Shown in pieces: positions 1-14,209 of a stretch of DNA of 64,000 nucleotides. The position numbers were made by a program, and so were the translations under genes. Source of the stretch: a virus (lineage: Duplodnaviria > Heunggongvirae > Uroviricota > Caudoviricetes); IMG/VR virus record IMGVR_UViG_3300034107_000364; one strand, given 5' to 3'. Under the pieces are notes generated by a model. The model saw only the letters and a program-made list of their open reading frames with translations. It made no database searches and was not told where the DNA came from. Every line of letters starts with the position of its first letter. The stretch's first letter is position 1.

Positions 1-839
1 CTAATGGTAACGATGGAACTAATGGTTTAGACGGTACAAATGGTACTTCTGGAATCGATGGAATTCAAGGTGCTAATGGAAACGATGGTACATCTGGAAT
101 CGATGGTTTAAACGGAACATCAGGTATTGATGGAATTCAAGGTGCTAATGGAAACGATGGTACATCTGGAATCGATGGTTTAAACGGAACATCAGGAATT
201 GATGGTTTAAATGGTACATCTGGAATCGATGGTTTACAAGGTGCTAATGGAAACGATGGAACTAATGGTACTTCAGGTATTGATGGAACAAGTGGTTTTG
301 ATGGTACTTCAGGTATTGATGGTGCTAATGGAAACGACGGAACAAATGGTTTAGATGGTACTTCTGGAATCGATGGTATTAATGGTACATCTGGAATCGA
401 TGGAGTACAAGGTGCTCCAGGTAATGATGGAACAAATGCTACTGGAGCTATAGTTGCTTATAAAATTAAAGTTAACACATTATCTGGTAGTATAGATGCT
501 ACTACACCTATCGCAAACGTGTATGCACCTAATGGTACAGAAATATACAATAGTGCATCAGGTTGGTTAGTTAGTGGTTGGAATATTGCAAAATCAAGCA
601 ATAACCTAACACTTACACATCCTTTAGGAAAACCAGTTTTAATGGGTTCTACTACGGCAAGAGATGGTGTAGGTAATTTATTTACCAAAGCTATTATAGG
701 TACTACTGCCTCTGTAAATGCAATAATAAATACAGAAAGTAATGCCTCTGTACAATTTACTGCAGTTACAACAGCAGTTGGTGTTGCAACAGGAGCTACG
801 CCTTCTTACATAATTATAACATTCTTTGTAGAATCATAA
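1..839 (+). CDS. Collagen-like fibre protein, 5'-truncated by the window edge (Gly-X-Y repeats then a globular C-terminal domain)
   Basis: The frame starting at nt 3 reads NGNDGTNGLDGTNGTSGIDGIQGANG... and stays open into the listed 519..839 ORF (same frame, no stop). Confidence 0.85.
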   Translation, partial: NGNDGTNGLDGTNGTSGIDGIQGANGNDGTSGIDGLNGTSGIDGIQGANGNDGTSGIDGLNGTSGIDGLNGTSGIDGLQGANGNDGTNGTSGIDGTSGFDGTSGIDGANGNDGTNGLDGTSGIDGINGTSGIDGVQGAPGNDGTNATGAIVAYKIKVNTLSGSIDATTPIANVYAPNGTEIYNSASGWLVSGWNIAKSSNNLTLTHPLGKPVLMGSTTARDGVGNLFTKAIIGTTASVNAIINTESNASVQFTAVTTAVGVATGATPSYIIITFFVES

Positions 840-5242: not shown

Positions 5243-8194
5243 ATGTCTCAACTGAAACTAAAACAAATTCTTGAATTCCTATCTACATCACCAGCTACCG
5301 GTGACGTTTTAATGTATAATTCAAGCACTGGTAAATATGCAAACGCAGCATTGCCAAACACATTTGGATTACCATATAAATATAGTAATTCTACATCTGG
5401 TTTGGTAGCATCAGGTTTTTTAAGATTTAATAATATAGTTACGCCTACATCTCTTGTTATAAGTGAAACAAGCTCTAAAAGTCTTAGTGCTACAATTTCA
5501 TTAGATGCTATGACACTTTCTACTAATAATAGAAAGTCAATCATCGTTATTACAAGTGCAACCAATGGCAATATCTACAAAACATTTTACGTAAATAGTG
5601 TAACTCTAGGATCAGGTGAAAGAACGCTTGCTTTAGAACCTATAGCAAGTTCAAACTGGTCATCGTTAGTTAATAATGATGACTTATTCATGTTTATTCT
5701 ACCTATTGGTGACAGAGGAACTTCAGGAACTAATGGAACGAATGGTACTTCAGGAACGAATGGTAGTTCTGGTACTAATGGAACGAATGGAACTAGCGGT
5801 ACTAATGGTACATCTGGAACTAATGGTACTTCAGGAACGAATGGAACTAATGGTACTTCAGGAACGAATGGAACTAGTGGAACGAATGGTAGTTCTGGTT
5901 CAAGCGGAACTAATGGAACTAGTGGAACGAATGGTACTTCAGGTATCAAAGGTGTAACTGGAACGAATGCTGTAATTAGTATAGATCCTACTGTAACAGG
6001 TTTAGAAGGTACTCCTGCCAATGTCGTTAATATGGGTACTGAAAGTAATGCGATATTGAAATTCACAATTCCAGTAGGTGCAACAGGTTTAAAGGGTGCT
6101 CCAGGTACATCAGGTTCAAGTGGAACTAACGGTACATCTGGAACGAATGGATCTTCTGGTTCAAGTGGAACTAACGGTACATCTGGAACGAATGGATCTT
6201 CAGGTACAAATGGTACTAATGGATCTTCAGGAACTAACGGTACATCTGGAACTAATGGTACTTCAGGTGCTAAAGGTGCTCCTGGAACTTCTGGAACTAA
6301 TGGTACAAATGGAACTTCAGGAACTAATGGAACTTCAGGAACTAATGGTTCAAGTGGAACTAATGGAACTAATGGAACTTCAGGAACTAATGGTTCAAGT
6401 GGAACTAATGGAACTTCAGGAACTAATGGTTCAAGTGGAACTAATGGAACTAATGGAACTTCAGGTACGAATGGTACATCTGGAACTAATGGAACTTCTG
6501 GAACTAATGGTACAAATGGAACTTCAGGAACTAATGGAACTTCAGGAACTAATGGAACTTCAGGTACGAATGGTACATCTGGAACTAATGGATCTTCTGG
6601 AACTAATGGTACTAATGGAACTTCAGGAACTAACGGTACATCTGGAACGAATGGATCTTCAGGAACTAACGGTACATCTGGAACGAATGGATCTTCTGGT
6701 TCAAGTGGTACTAATGGAACTTCAGGTACAAATGGTACATCTGGAACTAATGGAACATCTGGTTCTTCTGGAACGAATGGAACTTCAGGTACAAATGGTA
6801 CTAATGGTACTTCAGGAACTAATGGAACTTCAGGAACTAATGGATCTTCAGGAACAAACGGTACGAATGGAACTTCAGGTACAAATGGTACATCTGGAAC
6901 TAATGGAACTTCAGGTATTAAAGGTCAAAAGGGTGAAATAGGTGTACAAGGAAATCCAGGTTGGGGCGTTACAATGCAAGGACAAGTTGCAACTTCTTTA
7001 TTATTACCAACACAAGGTAATTTAAATGGAGATGCATATATTGTACAAGCAGATGATTCACTTTGGATATGGACTTCAACAGACGGATGGATGGGAGGCG
7101 GTTCTATTCAAGGACCTCAAGGTAATACTGGTACTAATGGAACTAGTGGAACAAATGGTTCAAGTGGAACTAACGGTACATCTGGAACTAATGGAACTTC
7201 AGGAACTAATGGTAGTTCAGGTTCAAGTGGAACAAATGGAACTTCTGGTACAAATGGAACTTCAGGTGCTAAAGGTGCTCCTGGAACTTCAGGAACTAAT
7301 GGTTCAAGTGGTACTAATGGTAGTTCAGGTTCAAGTGGAACTAACGGAACTTCAGGAACTAATGGTACATCAGGAACTAATGGTACATCAGGTACAAATG
7401 GATCTTCAGGTTCAAGTGGAACTAATGGATCTTCAGGAACTAATGGAACAAGTGGTACTAATGGATCTTCAGGAACTAATGGAACAAATGGATCTTCAGG
7501 AACTAACGGTACTTCAGGAACTAATGGAACAAGTGGTACTAATGGATCTTCAGGAACTAACGGTACAAATGGATCTTCAGGAACTAACGGTACTTCAGGA
7601 ACGAATGGTAGTTCTGGTTCTTCTGGAACTAATGGAACAAGTGGTACTAATGGAACTAGCGGAACTAATGGTTCTTCAGGAACTAATGGTACAAACGGAT
7701 CTTCAGGAACTAATGGAACTAATGGTTCTTCAGGAACTAATGGTACAAACGGATCTTCAGGTGTAAAAGGTGATACCGGTACTTCTAACGCATATGCTAC
7801 GGCAATGAATCAAGATACTAAAACTGATTCAAATGTTCAATTTAATGATGTAATTATTACAAGAGCAGAAAAGGTGAGAATTATCACAGTCACTGGTGCA
7901 GGAGGCATATACAATGTTTCTCCAGATTTAGGTAATATATTTCAAATTACAGGTGGAGCAACTGCTGCAATAACTATGACTCCTGTTGGAGCTACTAATT
8001 ATGGACAATCAGGAACTATCATACTTGTAAATGGACCAAGTGGAACTACGTGGTCACAGTTACCAGCAAACATGTTAACACCATCTGGAGCAGATATTAA
8101 TTTTGTAACTGCACCAAATCTAGTATCAGTAATATCATTCATAATAAATAATAGCGGTCAAGTATTATGTAACTATGTAGGACATTTCGCATAA
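5243..8194 (+). CDS. Collagen-like tail/appendage fibre (GTN/GTS/GSS repeats)
   Basis: Long Gly-X-Y tracts interrupted by small globular domains; C-terminal fibre-type domain. Confidence 0.85.
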   Translation: MSQLKLKQILEFLSTSPATGDVLMYNSSTGKYANAALPNTFGLPYKYSNSTSGLVASGFLRFNNIVTPTSLVISETSSKSLSATISLDAMTLSTNNRKSIIVITSATNGNIYKTFYVNSVTLGSGERTLALEPIASSNWSSLVNNDDLFMFILPIGDRGTSGTNGTNGTSGTNGSSGTNGTNGTSGTNGTSGTNGTSGTNGTNGTSGTNGTSGTNGSSGSSGTNGTSGTNGTSGIKGVTGTNAVISIDPTVTGLEGTPANVVNMGTESNAILKFTIPVGATGLKGAPGTSGSSGTNGTSGTNGSSGSSGTNGTSGTNGSSGTNGTNGSSGTNGTSGTNGTSGAKGAPGTSGTNGTNGTSGTNGTSGTNGSSGTNGTNGTSGTNGSSGTNGTSGTNGSSGTNGTNGTSGTNGTSGTNGTSGTNGTNGTSGTNGTSGTNGTSGTNGTSGTNGSSGTNGTNGTSGTNGTSGTNGSSGTNGTSGTNGSSGSSGTNGTSGTNGTSGTNGTSGSSGTNGTSGTNGTNGTSGTNGTSGTNGSSGTNGTNGTSGTNGTSGTNGTSGIKGQKGEIGVQGNPGWGVTMQGQVATSLLLPTQGNLNGDAYIVQADDSLWIWTSTDGWMGGGSIQGPQGNTGTNGTSGTNGSSGTNGTSGTNGTSGTNGSSGSSGTNGTSGTNGTSGAKGAPGTSGTNGSSGTNGSSGSSGTNGTSGTNGTSGTNGTSGTNGSSGSSGTNGSSGTNGTSGTNGSSGTNGTNGSSGTNGTSGTNGTSGTNGSSGTNGTNGSSGTNGTSGTNGSSGSSGTNGTSGTNGTSGTNGSSGTNGTNGSSGTNGTNGSSGTNGTNGSSGVKGDTGTSNAYATAMNQDTKTDSNVQFNDVIITRAEKVRIITVTGAGGIYNVSPDLGNIFQITGGATAAITMTPVGATNYGQSGTIILVNGPSGTTWSQLPANMLTPSGADINFVTAPNLVSVISFIINNSGQVLCNYVGHFA
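5717..7770 (+). repeat. Degenerate 9-bp-unit coding repeat (GGAACTAAT/GGTACTTCA)
   Basis: Tandem triplet-codon repeats encoding GTN/GTS/GSS. Confidence 0.85.
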
Positions 8195-8221: not shown

Positions 8222-10951
8222 ATGAAGAATATAGGATTTTCTAGAATCGATTTTTGGAGTACATCAAGCGGTGTATCAACTTCAAAGAGTACTGCACAGT
8301 CTACTACGACTGCGTGGTCAACTTCTCAGTCTACGAATGAAGCTGTAACAACTTCAAGAATGACTGACAAGGCATTTAATACTAGTCAATCTACTACGAC
8401 CACTTGGACAACAGTGTGGTCAACTTCACATAGTACAACTACAGTTTGGTCTACATCACATAGTACAACTACAGTTTGGTCTACATCACATAGTACATCA
8501 ACAGTTTGGGCTACATTGGTTGATACTAATCAGACTACTAGTTTGGGTACTTCTAGATCTACAACAACAGTTTGGGGTACTTCTATTGGAACCAGTCAAA
8601 GCACATCACATAGTACTACAACTACTTGGACTACTTCATGGACAACTAATCAGAGTACGAGCACTTCATGGGTAACAACTTGGACAACTAGTCAATCTAC
8701 GAGTCAAAGTACAACTACTACTTATACAACTTCATGGACTACATTATGGAATACAAGTCAAGGTACGACAACTACTTGGACAACTTCATGGACTACAACT
8801 TATAGCACTAGTCATTCGACGAATAAAAGTACATCTACTGTATGGACTACTTCATGGGTTACAACATATAGTACTAGTCAATCGACTACAACTACTTATA
8901 CAACTTCATGGACAACTTCGTATAATACAAATCAAACTACTTCGCATAGTACAACTACTGCGTGGACTACAACTTGGGATACTGGTGTTTCTACGACAAC
9001 TTCATGGACAACTTCATGGACTACTTCATATAATACTAGTCAGACCACTTCACATAGTACAACAACAACTTGGACAACTTCGCATACTACTGCATATGAA
9101 CTGACAACTTCAATGGGTACAACTACTTCATGGACTACTGTGTGGTTAACGAGTCATTCAACTACAACTACATACACAACGTCATATGCAACTAGTCATA
9201 CAACGAGTCAAAGTACTAGTGCGTCTACAACAACAACTTATAGTACGAGTCATTCAACTACTACTACGTGGACTACTGCGTGGACTACAACTTATAGCAC
9301 AAGTCATGCTACAAGTCAATCGACTACGACCACGTATAACACAAGCCAAAGTACAACTACTACGTGGACTACTTCATGGTCTACTTCATATAATACATTA
9401 TATAGTACGAGTCAATCAACTACGACCACGTATAACACAAGCCAAAGTACTAGTCATACAACCGTTACAATATGGACTACTACGTGGACTACTTCATGGG
9501 CAACTAGTCACACTACGAGTCAATCAACTACTACAACATATAACACAAGTCATAGTACAAGTACTACGTGGACAACAACATATGCAACTAGTCACACTAC
9601 GAGTCAGTCAACAAGTAGAACTACAAGTACTACGTGGACAACTTCATATGCAACTAGCCATTCAACGACTACCACGTGGACTACAACATATAATACAAGT
9701 CAAGTTACACAAAGAGTAACTTCTCATAATACAACAACAACATATGCAACTAGTCATTCAACGACTACTACGTGGACAACTTCATGGGTTACAACATATG
9801 CAACTAGTCATAGTACGAGTCATTCTACTACAACTACATATAATACAAGTAGATCTACGAGTCAAATAACTAGATATACTTGGACTACTTCATGGACTAC
9901 CTCATATACAACTACTTGGGCAACGAGTCATGCAACTTCAACAGTTTATAATACATCTCGAATAACTTCGACTACTTATACAACTACATGGGGGACATCA
10001 GCTGGTGCAAGTAGAAGTACTGGAATAAATACCACAACTACATATACAACTACTTGGGTAACTTCACATGTTACGAGTCAAAGTACAACTACGACTTATG
10101 GAACTTCTCTAGCATTATCTAGATCTACACAAGTTGGTGGAGGTGGATCTTATACAACCACATGGTCGACAGCTATAAATTATACAACGACATGGAGTAC
10201 TTATGTTGAATATGGAACCAATTGGACGTCTACTGTTTCTTACACAACTACATGGTCATCATGGCAAGAATGGACAACTTACTGGGATCAATATGAATAT
10301 TATTGGGTAAGTTATACAGCAGAAAGAAGTACTGAAGCTTTCGATTGTATAGTCGAAGGAACGCCGATTAATATTTCAACGAATACTACTGTGCTTGTTG
10401 AAAGTTTAAAACTAAACGATAATATTTTAACAATGGATGGACCATTTAATGTTGATAATATACCGGCATTAATAGCAGTATCTACTCCTAATATTACAAA
10501 TAGTTTATCAATAGATGATATTTTAGTTAGAGCAGATCGTGTAAATGTTTTCGGTATCATAGATATAAATAATGGATTATTAAAAACTACAGCTGAACAT
10601 ATGCACATTTTTAAAAGAGATGGCGCATGGATCTCTAGAGCTGCTTCTGCATTACAACTTGGAGATAAATTATATCACATCAGTGGTATAGAAATAGAAA
10701 TAACTTCATTAGTTGAAGATACTACTACACCATATGTTGTTTATAAATTAGACACTGAACCCAACGATACATTTTTTGCAAATGGAATCTTAACTCATAA
10801 TAAGAAACCAGGTTTATGTGATTTTAATGGATATGGTCCATTCTTATGTGATCCAAATGATCCATGTTATGATCCATGTAGCCCATATGCAGGTGACTTT
10901 GGTTGTGATTATTTATGTGGTAAAGATGGTCCTGGAATTAAAGAGATGTAA
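8222..10951 (+). CDS. Thr/Ser/Trp-rich zipper protein A with C-terminal Hint domain and Cys-rich tail
   Basis: About 700 aa of TTxW/TSQ units, then CIVEGT...H...FFANGILTHN (Hint), then a 49-aa Cys-rich peptide. Confidence 0.85.
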   Translation: MKNIGFSRIDFWSTSSGVSTSKSTAQSTTTAWSTSQSTNEAVTTSRMTDKAFNTSQSTTTTWTTVWSTSHSTTTVWSTSHSTTTVWSTSHSTSTVWATLVDTNQTTSLGTSRSTTTVWGTSIGTSQSTSHSTTTTWTTSWTTNQSTSTSWVTTWTTSQSTSQSTTTTYTTSWTTLWNTSQGTTTTWTTSWTTTYSTSHSTNKSTSTVWTTSWVTTYSTSQSTTTTYTTSWTTSYNTNQTTSHSTTTAWTTTWDTGVSTTTSWTTSWTTSYNTSQTTSHSTTTTWTTSHTTAYELTTSMGTTTSWTTVWLTSHSTTTTYTTSYATSHTTSQSTSASTTTTYSTSHSTTTTWTTAWTTTYSTSHATSQSTTTTYNTSQSTTTTWTTSWSTSYNTLYSTSQSTTTTYNTSQSTSHTTVTIWTTTWTTSWATSHTTSQSTTTTYNTSHSTSTTWTTTYATSHTTSQSTSRTTSTTWTTSYATSHSTTTTWTTTYNTSQVTQRVTSHNTTTTYATSHSTTTTWTTSWVTTYATSHSTSHSTTTTYNTSRSTSQITRYTWTTSWTTSYTTTWATSHATSTVYNTSRITSTTYTTTWGTSAGASRSTGINTTTTYTTTWVTSHVTSQSTTTTYGTSLALSRSTQVGGGGSYTTTWSTAINYTTTWSTYVEYGTNWTSTVSYTTTWSSWQEWTTYWDQYEYYWVSYTAERSTEAFDCIVEGTPINISTNTTVLVESLKLNDNILTMDGPFNVDNIPALIAVSTPNITNSLSIDDILVRADRVNVFGIIDINNGLLKTTAEHMHIFKRDGAWISRAASALQLGDKLYHISGIEIEITSLVEDTTTPYVVYKLDTEPNDTFFANGILTHNKKPGLCDFNGYGPFLCDPNDPCYDPCSPYAGDFGCDYLCGKDGPGIKEM
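10346..10801 (+). other. Hint (intein-like/BIL-type) autoprocessing domain, C709-N860
   Basis: Block A CIVEGTPI, block B TTAEHMH, block F VYKLD, block G FFANGILTHN; +1 residue is Lys; no endonuclease. Confidence 0.8.
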
Positions 10952-10990
10952 ATAGAATAATAAATAGAAATAAATTATATAAACTAAAAC

Positions 10991-13150
10991 ATGGCGATTT
11001 ATACAACATATTGGACTACTTCATATCAAGCATATGGCCCTGTTCCATATTCTCGTGCAACTGCTGCATGGGTATATCCTAGTAGAACTACGAGTTATAT
11101 CGCGTATCCTAGTAGAACTACTTCGTTTTATAGAAACACTAGTCAAAGTACATTCTATTATGCAAATACTTCTCAGGTTACATATCCTCCTATAATTTAT
11201 GCTAGTACTTCATGGACTACATATTTTAATACTAGTCATGTTACATCTACTGCATGGACAACATCATACAATACTAGCAGAACTACATCACATGTAACCG
11301 CAACTTATTGGGATACTTATTGGACTACTTATTTTAACACTAGCCAAACTACGAGTCATAATACAACTACTACTTGGGCAACGAGTCATTCTACTAGTAC
11401 AGTATATAATACTTCTGCAAGTACTTCACATACTACTAGTCAAAGTACATTTTCGGATGTATCAACAGCTTGGACTACTACTTGGGCGACGAGTCATGCA
11501 ACATCAACTACGTATACAACATCATATGCAACTAGTCATTCAACGAGTCAAAGTACAAGTCTAGCAACATCAACAACATATAACACTAGTCATTCAACAT
11601 CAACTTCATATTGGACTGAGTGGATCACTAGTTGGGCAACGAGTCATGTAACGAGTCAAAGTACAACTACTACATACATAACGAGTCATGCAACGAGTCA
11701 AAGTACGACTACTACGTGGACTACATATTGGACTACAACGTATAATACGAGTCATGCGACGAGTCAATCGACAACAACTGCATATAACACTAGTCATTCA
11801 ACATCAACTTCATGGACTACAACATATATTACAAGTCGAGTTACCAGTGATTTAACAGCTCAGAATACAACGACAACATATACAACTAATTGGTCAACGA
11901 GTCATACAACGACTACAACATGGCTTACAAATTATGTAACTAGTCACATGACGAGTCAAAGTACTAGTAGATCTACAACGACAGCTTGGTCTACGAGTCA
12001 TAGTACAACTACTACGTGGACAACTACATATTCAACTAGTCACACTACGAGTCAGTCAACAAGTAGATCTACAACGACCACGTATAATACGAGTCATAGT
12101 ACAACTACTACGTGGACAACTTCATGGACTACTGCATATGTAACTAGTCACACAACGAGTCATGCTACATCGACAACATATAATACGAGTCAAGGTACGA
12201 GTAGATCTACATCTACAAGTTGGATTACATCTTGGATAACTACATATAATACGAGTCAAAGTACCACAACTACGTATACAACTACATGGTTAACAAGTCA
12301 CACTACGAGTCAATCTACGAGTCGAAGTACAACTACTACATGGGCTACAAGTCGGTCTACTAACCAATCGACTACAACCACGTACACGACTACATGGACA
12401 ACGAGTCATACAACGAGTCATAGTACAAGTCATAGTACAACTACAACTTGGTCAACTAGTCATGGAACTAGCCAATCAACGAGTCAGTCTACGACTACTA
12501 CGTGGACAACAACATATTCAACTAGTCACACAACGAGTCAATCTACTACGCTTAGTACAACGACAATTTGGCAAACTAATTGGACAACGAGTCAATCTAC
12601 GAGTCATAGTACAACGACAACATGGACGACTTCATGGTCAACTTCATTTTCTACTTCACAAAGTACAACTACAAGTTGGACAACGAGTCAGTCTACCAAT
12701 CAGTCAACGACTATGACGTATACTACTTCGTGGACTACAAATTGGAATACGAGCCAAAGTACAACTACAAGTTGGGTTACAGAATGGACAACTACTTGGG
12801 CAACTCTTAAAAATACGTCACAGTCTACGACTACTACGTATAATACGAGTGCATCTACGACTACTACGTATAATACAAGTGTATCTACAACGACCACTTA
12901 TAATACGAGCCAGAGTACGAGTCAATCGACAACTACAACTTGGTCAACTATTTATAGTGTTAGTACAGAATGGACAACCACATGGGCAACCACAACAACT
13001 TGGACTACAAGTGTATCTACGAGTACAAGTTGGACAACAACTTGGATTACAGCTTACGAAAAATTAGAAACTTGGTACGCAAATAATACACCTCTTAATA
13101 AACTATCTACAAATAGACAATGGAGACAAAATCCATATCAAGGTAATTAA
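10991..13150 (+). CDS. Thr/Ser/Trp-rich zipper protein B (mirror partner of protein A)
   Basis: 719 aa built from the same TTxW/TSQ/TSH units. Confidence 0.85.
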   Translation: MAIYTTYWTTSYQAYGPVPYSRATAAWVYPSRTTSYIAYPSRTTSFYRNTSQSTFYYANTSQVTYPPIIYASTSWTTYFNTSHVTSTAWTTSYNTSRTTSHVTATYWDTYWTTYFNTSQTTSHNTTTTWATSHSTSTVYNTSASTSHTTSQSTFSDVSTAWTTTWATSHATSTTYTTSYATSHSTSQSTSLATSTTYNTSHSTSTSYWTEWITSWATSHVTSQSTTTTYITSHATSQSTTTTWTTYWTTTYNTSHATSQSTTTAYNTSHSTSTSWTTTYITSRVTSDLTAQNTTTTYTTNWSTSHTTTTTWLTNYVTSHMTSQSTSRSTTTAWSTSHSTTTTWTTTYSTSHTTSQSTSRSTTTTYNTSHSTTTTWTTSWTTAYVTSHTTSHATSTTYNTSQGTSRSTSTSWITSWITTYNTSQSTTTTYTTTWLTSHTTSQSTSRSTTTTWATSRSTNQSTTTTYTTTWTTSHTTSHSTSHSTTTTWSTSHGTSQSTSQSTTTTWTTTYSTSHTTSQSTTLSTTTIWQTNWTTSQSTSHSTTTTWTTSWSTSFSTSQSTTTSWTTSQSTNQSTTMTYTTSWTTNWNTSQSTTTSWVTEWTTTWATLKNTSQSTTTTYNTSASTTTTYNTSVSTTTTYNTSQSTSQSTTTTWSTIYSVSTEWTTTWATTTTWTTSVSTSTSWTTTWITAYEKLETWYANNTPLNKLSTNRQWRQNPYQGN

Positions 13151-13273: not shown

Positions 13274-14209
13274 ATGGAAATGTTTAACAAGAAAGTTCTA
13301 GCAGAACGAATAGGACCTCTAAAAAAGAATGTAAATCTGGATGCCTTGGAAGAGGTTGAAAGATATGTGATTAAGAAATGTAAAGAATTAGGTATTGAAC
13401 ATAGTTATGATGTGATTGCCGAAGAAATGCCATACTTCAAAACTATGGGATATACCGAATATGCAACAGTATTTATGTTACAACCTTTAAATCTAAAGAT
13501 GCGAACAGGCCAAATCATGGATGCATATCTAGATAATGTTGAAGACGTTTCAGATTGGGCTGCATATTTCAGATCTAATATAGAATCTAAAATGGCTAAC
13601 AAGTATCAAGAGCGTAAAGAAGATTTTGATTCTTATTCAAATAAATCTATTCTTGTTATTCTTCCTGGATCAAATAAGCTTAAAACAAATTGTTGTTTAA
13701 ATAAATTAATTCAAATTGCTAAAGAGCATAAGGGTGATATTTACTTTAAACCACATCCAATTACAACGCACGCTGTAATTGGAGAAATCAAAGATCTCTT
13801 CGGTGAAGAAGCTATTTTACCTAGAGATATCGATTTGTATCACTTCTTACAAAAAGCAGAAAAGGTTTATACAACTCACATCAGTGAAAGTGCTTTATAT
13901 GCTACCGTTTTAGGTAAAGAAGTTGAGCCTATTGATGTTTGGAATAATGTACACCAAGGTTCTTTCTATGCAATCAATTCACACTTATTTGACCACAGAA
14001 ATAATGCACCAGAATGGGTTAATAGAACATTTTCAAGTCCTAAGTCTGGACTTATTCATCCAGTAATTGACAAAGATTGGAAGAAAAAGGTTGACTTGTA
14101 TTTTGAATACATTTTTGCCAAACGTAAATATTACAAAGGATGGTTCTTAGATCAACCTAAGAAAAATCCACAAAATAAACCAAATGGACCTAGTGGTCCT
14201 AAACGATAA
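13274..14209 (+). CDS. Capsule-polysaccharide-synthesis-like (KpsS/KpsC-type) glycosyltransferase
   Basis: IYFKPHP motif, then KVYT..SESALYA.VLGKEV typical of this GT-B group. Confidence 0.6.
   Translation: MEMFNKKVLAERIGPLKKNVNLDALEEVERYVIKKCKELGIEHSYDVIAEEMPYFKTMGYTEYATVFMLQPLNLKMRTGQIMDAYLDNVEDVSDWAAYFRSNIESKMANKYQERKEDFDSYSNKSILVILPGSNKLKTNCCLNKLIQIAKEHKGDIYFKPHPITTHAVIGEIKDLFGEEAILPRDIDLYHFLQKAEKVYTTHISESALYATVLGKEVEPIDVWNNVHQGSFYAINSHLFDHRNNAPEWVNRTFSSPKSGLIHPVIDKDWKKKVDLYFEYIFAKRKYYKGWFLDQPKKNPQNKPNGPSGPKR

Follow-up and report, generated by a model that had tools for sequence, protein, structure and literature searches.

A type-A-BIL-like Hint domain at the closed end of a two-arm phage fibre: a probable self-excising end-module

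Introduction

What can a Hint domain do at the closed end of a fibre made of two chains? This question is raised by a locus of a Caudoviricetes virus (IMG/VR record IMGVR_UViG_3300034107_000364), which we analysed within a window of 64,000 nucleotides, i.e., the whole stretch of DNA under study. Two neighbouring genes (Table 1) encode protein A, whose long repetitive arm leads into a Hint domain, and protein B, whose first residues lie opposite the end of that arm. A first-pass annotation had proposed that the zippering of both arms delivers the alpha-amine of B to a thioester on A and welds the two chains together or, failing this, that the Hint serves merely to release or cap the tip. From the comparison of sequences, we consider it probable that this Hint, which resembles type A BILs, cuts itself out and thereby leaves A flush with B.

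Table 1. Features of the A/B fibre locus in the window.
Feature	Coordinates	Strand	Evidence
Gene of protein A (909 aa), composed of the zipper arm, the Hint and the Cys-rich tail	8222..10951	+	ORF list, translation
Arm A, residues 1-708; antiparallel complement of B	8222..10345	+	composition, spacing, complement alignment
Predicted scissile bond D708/C709; Hint nucleophile C709	10343..10348	+	translation (cleavage predicted)
Hint (BIL-like) domain, C709-N860	10346..10801	+	profiles, phmmer, AF2, Foldseek
Block B, T790-A-E-H793 (TxxH)	10589..10600	+	alignments A1, A2
Terminal H859-N860 (...GILTH859N860), predicted Asn cyclisation site	10796..10801	+	HN domain end across the family
Tail K861-M909: Lys-Lys (K861-K862), then 8 Cys; 49 residues	10802..10948	+	alignments A1, A3
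Spacer between A and B, 39 nt, AT-rich	10952..10990	+	sequence
Protein B gene, 719 aa, complementary arm; residues 1-2 opposite D708	10991..13150	+	
Conserved downstream gene, phrog_26179, weak polysialyltransferase-like Pfam match; synteny anchor	13274..14209	+	

Results

Protein A carries a genuine Hint domain

The translation of 8222-10951 reads ...STEAFD708/C709IVEGT... at the junction, and a Hint domain lying directly after the zipper, as first annotated, was recovered by phmmer, AF2 and Foldseek alike. Profile searches are less eloquent: the Hint region scores 22.7 bits against the Pfam family Intein_splicing (cut-off 35.8) and 20.8 bits against PT-HINT (cut-off 27.7), the Pfam scan of full-length protein A returned no Hint-type match, and neither PHROGs, searched with the Hint region, nor the related-locus search queried with the Hint protein alone gave any match. 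A tblastn search with the Hint produced a single match, in phage NCTB; phmmer against 1.84 billion representatives retrieved 689 proteins at E<=1e-3. The AF2 model, built from 35 sequences, has a pLDDT above 90 at residues 11-165 of the 213 modelled, with the Cys-rich tail modelled poorly (pLDDT 49-65). Its best Foldseek match is BIL2 of the Tetrahymena BUBL1 locus (E 2e-9), followed by the C. thermocellum BIL (3e-8), then by inteins and Hedgehog; 54 PDB chains match at E<=1e-3 and, among the matches listed, 46 out of 46 are BIL domains, inteins or Hedgehog. The Hint fold, the Cys nucleophile and the TxxH motif of the HINT superfamily are thus all present, Thr and His of block B being invariant in alignment A1 and H793 in the 35-sequence alignment A2; the Pfam scores lie below the gathering cut-offs. 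The Hint domain of protein A is genuine despite these sub-threshold scores. The structural nearness of the model to 2LWY and 6Y75 hints at a possible kinship with the A-type BIL motif set (Amitai 2003).

The family pattern suggests a self-contained reaction

Among the 116 family members with a complete start, 115 open with Cys, and HN closes the domain in 149 out of 151. The residue that follows (+1) is Cys, Ser or Thr in just 3 of 117 members, and a Lys occupies +1 or +2 in 108 of the 117. Tails of 1-10 residues prevail, many proteins finishing in ...THNxK. Together, this Lys and the short tails suggest that the thioester is resolved within the protein itself. Protein A follows this pattern: H859-N860 is succeeded by K861 rather than by Cys, Ser or Thr, as is typical of type A BILs. 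This Lys had already been pointed out, and it makes the canonical branched intermediate impossible; moreover, the domain is followed by a 49-residue tail and a stop, and a gene of its own encodes B, so that protein A does not qualify as a canonical class 1 intein. Nor does it qualify as a Hog domain, since the family keeps HN and what comes after it is a short peptide rich in Cys. In the relatives, this Cys tail has four Cys spaced C-x5-C-x5-C-x5/6-C (alignments A1, A3); three Hint-bearing relatives (L050, L008 and L052) have short tails free of Cys.

The family is found on exposed fibre and decoration proteins: among the 62 members scanned there are N-terminal parts of collagen-like, Ig-like and Hoc-like type. 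The Hints are exchangeable modules across many phage fibre genes, and the genes downstream of other Hint-ended phage proteins are unrelated. Cys1, TxxH and HN are preserved wherever they can be seen, both in the window and in nine out of nine other Hint-bearing loci, at no more than 44-57% identity, which argues for selection on catalysis; at L008, the A gene is cut and Cys1 and TxxH lie outside the visible part.

Arms A and B are antiparallel complements that meet at the Hint

The repeat unit of arm A, judged from composition and spacing, is of four residues with Thr/Ser, one face being aromatic or polar. Pairing was scored as an aromatic residue opposite K/R/Q/H/N. Under this rule, the gapped alignment of A(1-708) with reversed B reaches 534, whereas the parallel control stays at 64 and ten block shuffles at 25-45: A and B are antiparallel complements. 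A rule placing aromatic opposite aromatic had made the sum of 710 unremarkable (6 coincidences; mean 11.3); it does not describe the pairing and was given up. The register first described, with residue numbers of A and B adding up to 710, holds over A644-679 and gives way to a sum of 709 at the tip (A680-708), placing D708 opposite B1 or B2, within one residue of the earlier assignment.

This register is kept in homologues, as the first-pass proposal required. In six of seven homologous pairs the zipper reaches B residue 1-4 and the Hint begins 0-8 residues further on; across the homologues, tip offsets span -7 to +4. Arm lengths agree in eight related pairs, and mirrored indels are seen in relatives; those of G001/G002 were placed by protein alignments and offset profiles, their placement at the DNA level being ambiguous owing to repeats. 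At L052, where a Hint follows an arm of 166 residues paired with one of 148, no complement signal was found (23 vs 25). The predicted complex of the A tip and Hint with the start of B scored 0.01, which speaks neither for nor against their contact.

Protein B begins MAIYTTYW. In nine out of nine Hint-bearing loci, position 2 of B is held by A, P or S; B has a small residue there in the Hint-less classes as well, and so do 17 of the 48 ORFs of the window. A search of the ESM Atlas with B returned unnamed viral clusters only. In cultured phages, the downstream gene has only 25-27% matches, in Caulobacter phages, and megablast of the whole locus against phage records found no match.

Sister loci carry other modules, or none, at the same tip

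Through the conserved downstream gene, we collected 80 related loci. Six carry an active Hint on A, to which L008, with its cut gene, can be added. In 15 others, arm A closes with a knob followed by a Gly run and a self-cleaving end of the S74 type; three of the four such ends tested (L174, L196 and L188) exceed the Pfam cut-off of Peptidase_S74, a domain for which the protein A of the window gave no Pfam match. In 16 more, arm A finishes in a Gly run and CxR[GN]Cx, with no active Hint, and a degenerate Hint devoid of Cys1 and HN is fused to a separate methyltransferase. In both the S74 class and the Hint-less class, the end of the zipper remains at B residue 1. Altogether, split arms whose A lacks an active Hint amount to 31 of the 80 loci (36 in another count of split loci), which rules out a strict coupling of split arms to the Hint. 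A permanently nicked tip is hence viable, since sister loci bear S74 or no active module there. Where the Hint is kept, the arms range from 166 to 1026 residues.

The first-pass annotation had also predicted single-ORF forms fused around a turn, and these exist: Hint-less self-complementary hairpins, with a loop of 14-34 residues at their exact centre (for one of them, L019, AF2 without an alignment gave an uninformative pLDDT of 32). Close relatives can differ in being split or fused: the second half of L033 is 84% identical to the B protein of L008 over 621 aa. A covalent tip is therefore acceptable too. A single ORF of the A-Hint-B type was not found among 150 representatives. The coded two-strand fibre is thus known in four states, with a covalent loop, a Hint, an S74 module or a bare nick at its tip. 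They amount to a natural experiment on the way in which a repetitive zipper of some 700 residues settles into register, and on whether the tip module nucleates it.

Discussion

How the Hint may remove itself

What the sequences show directly is the domain and its catalytic residues, that the two arms are complementary and in which register, and that relatives exchange the module at the tip. From them we infer the chemical steps and the kind of nucleophile that would resolve the thioester. A thioester would arise between C709 and D708, N860 would undergo cyclisation, and after trimming, arm A would end flush with the first residue of B. For the new end of A, we envisage either hydrolysis or renewed joining to the Lys-led, Cys-rich tail of A itself, and not to B. 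The family pattern agrees with type A BILs, which, according to PMC4031507, have an HN end and no +1 nucleophile, give predominantly cleavage products, and form a thioester that can be attacked by a freed amine; it also recalls BIL2, for which PMC8616854 describes the use of a C-extein lysine. Among the readings first proposed, mere release or capping of the tip is the one that fits best. Capping by the tail cannot be general, given the Cys-free short tails of three relatives.

Two side observations deserve mention. A conserved four-Cys tail is hard to explain if it is merely discarded, which speaks against self-excision. Furthermore, there is nearly no linker between the zipper end and the Hint, an arrangement that is also compatible with ligation.

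Could the Hint instead join A to B?

In the template-directed reaction that had been put forward, zippering would bring the alpha-amine of B, after removal of Met, to the D708 thioester. The result would be a single, covalently closed hairpin of some 1,400 residues, made after translation but equivalent to the single-ORF hairpins of relatives. We hold this to be unlikely, though it is the strongest of the alternatives. It would account for A708 facing B1 or B2 with such small offsets among homologues, for the small second residue of B in all nine Hint-bearing loci, for the self-complementary single-ORF hairpins with short central loops, and for the split and fused forms of close relatives; amine attack on a BIL thioester has precedent as well (PMC4031507, PMC8616854). 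However, the many split loci with no active Hint indicate that covalent closure is not required, the 15 S74-type modules are hydrolytic and cannot ligate, and the small second residue of B is common to Hint-less classes too. The strictly kept HN and the Lys at +1/+2 suggest a built-in acceptor, and the usually very short tails and unrelated downstream genes of the Hint family likewise disfavour ligation, as does the absence of A-Hint-B single ORFs among the 150 representatives.

Other fates of the Hint

It is improbable, in our estimation, that the C-terminus of arm A is transferred in the manner of Hedgehog or BUBL to a lysine of a virion protein, a host-surface molecule or a small molecule. 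BIL2, the closest solved relative, attaches its N-extein to lysines on other proteins (PMC8616854), and the Hint family is found on exposed fibre and decoration proteins. However, no candidate acceptor or adaptor region was found, an internal route is already given by the HN end and the Lys-bearing stub, and the S74 and Hint-less sister tips argue that no attachment is needed.

We give similarly little credit to a Hint that performs no chemistry and stays as a structural cap, or docks the start of B or modifying enzymes. The 16 loci with a Hint-derived domain on a methyltransferase show that a binding-only role exists in this system, but the catalytic residues are intact wherever visible in the window and in the nine other Hint-bearing loci. 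Very improbable, finally, is a decaying selfish intein-like insertion useless to the fibre: such Hints are indeed exchangeable among many phage fibre genes, but a homing endonuclease is absent, and a stop at residue 709 would suffice for removal, yet the catalytic residues are kept on arms of 166-1026 residues.

If the Hint does excise itself, thioester chemistry of the intein type would serve as a removable fibre end-module, parallel to the well-known S74 chaperone. Literature searches on Hint or intein-like domains with tail fibres gave no description of such an end-module; the papers retrieved by one of them dealt with inteins of terminase and ribonucleotide reductase or with other topics. 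Templated ligation, if true, would be a new natural principle of protein ligation, useful in protein engineering.

Comparison with known systems

With the type A BIL (C. thermocellum, PDB 2LWY), the domain of protein A shares the Hint fold, Cys1, TxxH, HN and the lack of a +1 nucleophile. Type A BILs are found in variable surface proteins, where cleavage is dominant and splicing via the freed amine possible (PMC4031507). Unlike them, the present family stands at, or close to, the very C-terminus of phage fibre proteins with a near-invariant Lys at +1/+2, and the Hint of the window stands at the tip of a two-chain zipper. BIL2 of Tetrahymena thermophila BUBL1 (6Y75, 6TMM) is the top match by structure and also the top PDB match by sequence (E 4e-4), and transfers its N-extein to a lysine amine (PMC8616854). 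However, it lies between ubiquitin-like domains in a eukaryote, identity is 18-20%, and there is no ubiquitin-like extein here.

In Hedgehog/Hog, too, the Hint is C-terminal, and by way of a thioester it releases what precedes it; the fold matches (1AT0, 6TYY); on the other hand, Hedgehog lacks the terminal Asn, has a sterol-recruiting region and a G/C junction, whereas here HN is conserved and the junction is D/C. Split inteins and mini-inteins share the Hint fold, Cys1 and HN, and the products of two neighbouring genes meet at the Hint; unlike in a split intein, the entire Hint is on A, and B has no intein piece and begins with the arm that pairs with A680-708. The Peptidase_S74 chaperone (PF13884) of phage tailspikes and fibres is unrelated in fold and chemistry, proceeding by hydrolysis without a thioester, but it is a self-removing C-terminal fibre module, as the Hint probably is, and it holds the very same tip in the 15 sister loci.

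The Hint Domain and Its Neighbourhood

The window comes, as its baseplate genes indicate, from an uncultured contractile-tailed phage, and the virus record is an 83-kb fragment with a completeness estimate of 30%. From the stop of protein A to the start of protein B, the spacing is 39 nt. Collagen-like fibre genes lie upstream of the pair; transferase, methyltransferase, and oxygenase genes lie downstream, with the baseplate genes beyond. The upstream fibre closes on a ...NY(V/I)G(N/H)F(A/Q) motif, kept in the window and in the related loci L033, L023, and L005. The gene immediately 3' of the arms keeps its synteny (also in L033, L023, L015, and L019) and has 230 relatives in viral contigs.

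By translation, the Hint domain of protein A begins at residue 709 (C-I-V-E-G-T), its block B is T790-A-E-H793, and it ends in G-I-L-T-H859-N860. After HN come K861-K862; the tail counts 49 residues, with 8 Cys, up to the stop. Pfam Hint-type models gave only scores below threshold; the domain is nonetheless genuine. Indeed, phmmer against 1.84 billion representatives returned 689 relatives at E<=1e-3 (163 at E<=1e-10), an AF2 model from 35 sequences is confident across the domain, and its nearest solved structures are, in order, the bacterial intein-like domain (BIL) BUBL1 BIL2, the C. thermocellum BIL, then inteins and Hedgehog. Thus, the first-pass annotation was right to place a Hint domain after the zipper, with Lys, and not Cys, Ser, or Thr, directly after HN.

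Coordinates of the arm genes and associated features in the window and in related loci
Feature	Location	Strand	Description
Protein A gene	8222-10951	+	909 aa (ORF listing)
Protein B gene	10991-13150	+	719 aa (ORF listing)
Upstream fibre proteins	5243-8194 and 3-839		collagen-like (G-T/S-N/S)
Gly run 35-70 residues ahead of Hint, window	10137-10151		GGGGS, A residues 639-643
Gly run 35-70 residues ahead of Hint, G001			PADNSSGGGAG, A residues ~925-941
Gene 3' of the arms	13274-14209		weak polysialyltransferase Pfam match
Second, more distant Hint-bearing ORF	G001:C1:16389-16853		L043
Second, more distant Hint-bearing ORF	G005:C1:78141-78530		L044
S74-type arm A	L174:3696-5750, L196:1424-4630, L188:1110-3089		runs past zipper end into ~90-residue domain, Gly run, Peptidase_S74
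Methyltransferase-Hint gene	L146:4744-5793		also L131, L132, L140, L141, L143, L144, L149-L152, L156, L160, L166-L168 (16 loci)
Single-ORF hairpin	L019:4569-6317		583 residues

An Antiparallel Zipper with Matched Arms

Thr makes up about 40% of both A(1-708) and B, and Ser about 20%; both have a 4-residue period in which each fourth position is aromatic or K/R/Q/H/N. Scoring aromatic residues opposite these basic or polar ones, we aligned A(1-708) to reversed B and obtained 534, versus 64 for the parallel control and 25-45 for ten block shuffles, with 125 aromatic:polar pairs against 8 aromatic:aromatic. The alignment is almost gap-free, and its register sum (A plus B residue numbers of paired positions) runs from 707 through 709 and 710 to 709 at the tip, which bears out the antiparallel pairing proposed near 710. 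The same complementarity was found in six of seven homologous pairs, one with a 909-residue gap-free run, and was absent in L052. In these pairs, the A residue opposite B1-B4 sits 0-8 residues ahead of Cys1, so that the start of B is in register with the Hint junction in homologues too, L052 giving no signal. In the related phages G001 and G003, the Gly run falls where the complement, elsewhere free of gaps, bulges by about 10 residues.

The arms are also matched in length. A residues before Cys1 and B residues number 166 and 148 in L052, 413 and 410 in L050, 708 and 719 in the window, 890 and 909 in L045, 937 and 940 in G002, 971 and 974 in both G001 and G003, and 1026 and 1042 in G005 (r = 0.9997; a single one of 5040 permutations pairs the arms as well). 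G001 and G002 differ by 34 residues in the length of A and likewise of B, and the rearranged segments mirror each other (A about 626-840, B about 76-335).

The fused forms predicted in relatives do exist: five distinct single ORFs (L033, L023, L019, L157/L159, and L165), all devoid of Hint, are self-complementary under this pairing rule, the two halves flanking a loop of non-repeat sequence exactly at the centre. In L033, this loop spans 14 residues (641-654 of 1297), and the second half of the ORF shares 84% identity with the B protein of L008, a locus with a Hint at the end of its A gene. The central loop of L019 (residues 264-332) is a knob with 6 Cys, reminiscent of the Cys-rich tails found after the Hint in split forms.

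Self-Excision Versus Ligation at the Tip

The most likely role of the Hint is self-excision: through a thioester at D708-C709 and N860 cyclisation, it would cut A back to the length of B, and the new end would either undergo hydrolysis or be linked again to the Lys-led tail. A 4-Cys tail in most zipper relatives, and a Cys stub on A in the methyltransferase class described below, hint at a Cys-bearing cap; three Hint-bearing relatives with short, Cys-free tails count against it.

The first-pass annotation had favoured a Hint placed to join A to B in trans, with attachment of a small molecule or release of the tip as alternatives. Its tip position stands. Ligation has chemical precedent and fits the perfect adjacency of the Hint junction and the start of B, but we consider it unlikely in view of the loci sampled through the conserved downstream gene (best 80 of 230 relatives). 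An active Hint on A occurs in six, the cut L008 being a seventh. In 16, A closes with a Gly run and a conserved CxR[GN]Cx directly before the stop, and the next gene, between the arms, encodes a methyltransferase fused to a Hint without Cys1 and HN. In 15, the end of A consists of a knob (about 90 residues), a Gly run, and a self-cleaving S74-type terminus (Pfam Peptidase_S74 above cut-off in L174, L196, and L188, not reached in L177). The remainder comprises five other two-gene forms, 13 "single" ORFs (four true hairpins, six B arms at contig ends, two short ORFs, and L008), 21 loci cut by contig ends, and four without such an ORF. In the S74-type and Hint-less classes (31 of 80), the end of the zipper remains at residue 1 of B, which indicates that a permanently nicked tip works, and a hydrolytic self-cleaving module can take the place of the Hint. 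The small second residue of B is seen in these classes too and is thus no evidence for ligation. Moreover, genes downstream of other Hint-family members are unrelated to the N-extein, and none of the 150 listed representatives is an A-Hint-B fusion within one ORF.

The methyltransferase-Hint proteins (345-366 aa) have a class-I methyltransferase-like N-terminus, and their degenerate Hint may have become a tip-binding module. In the S74-type loci L174, L196, and L188, a 184-189 aa gene without family match lies between A and B.

Comparison with Known Hint Systems

With a core profile, we scored the 150 listed representatives together with P0002 (metagenome) and P0003 (phage NCTB). HN closes the domain in 149 of 151 and Cys opens it in 115 of 116; the +1 position holds Cys, Ser, or Thr in 3 of 117, and Lys stands at +1 or +2 in 108 of 117. 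The tail is 1-10 residues long in most members. In 62 long members, the parts N-terminal to the Hint include collagen-like fibre, Ig-like, and Hoc-like segments; phrog_38766 ("virion structural protein") ends in this Hint, and phage NCTB has adjacent tail-fibre genes with the same type of ending. Several proteins (P0040, P0062, P0084, P0027, P0097, and others) string 2-4 Hint domains head to tail via HN-K-GGG-C, with Lys and a stretch of Gly between each Hint and the Cys1 of the next. Two related phage records, G001 and G005, have a second Hint-bearing ORF at another place in the genome; in the record of the window there is a single one.

In the portion of the literature available to us on tail fibres together with Hint or intein-like domains, we found no account of such fibre ends. 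The HN end, Cys start, and scarcity of Cys, Ser, or Thr at +1 agree with type A BILs as described in PMC4031507, and BIL2, according to PMC8616854, makes an isopeptide with a lysine of the C-extein.
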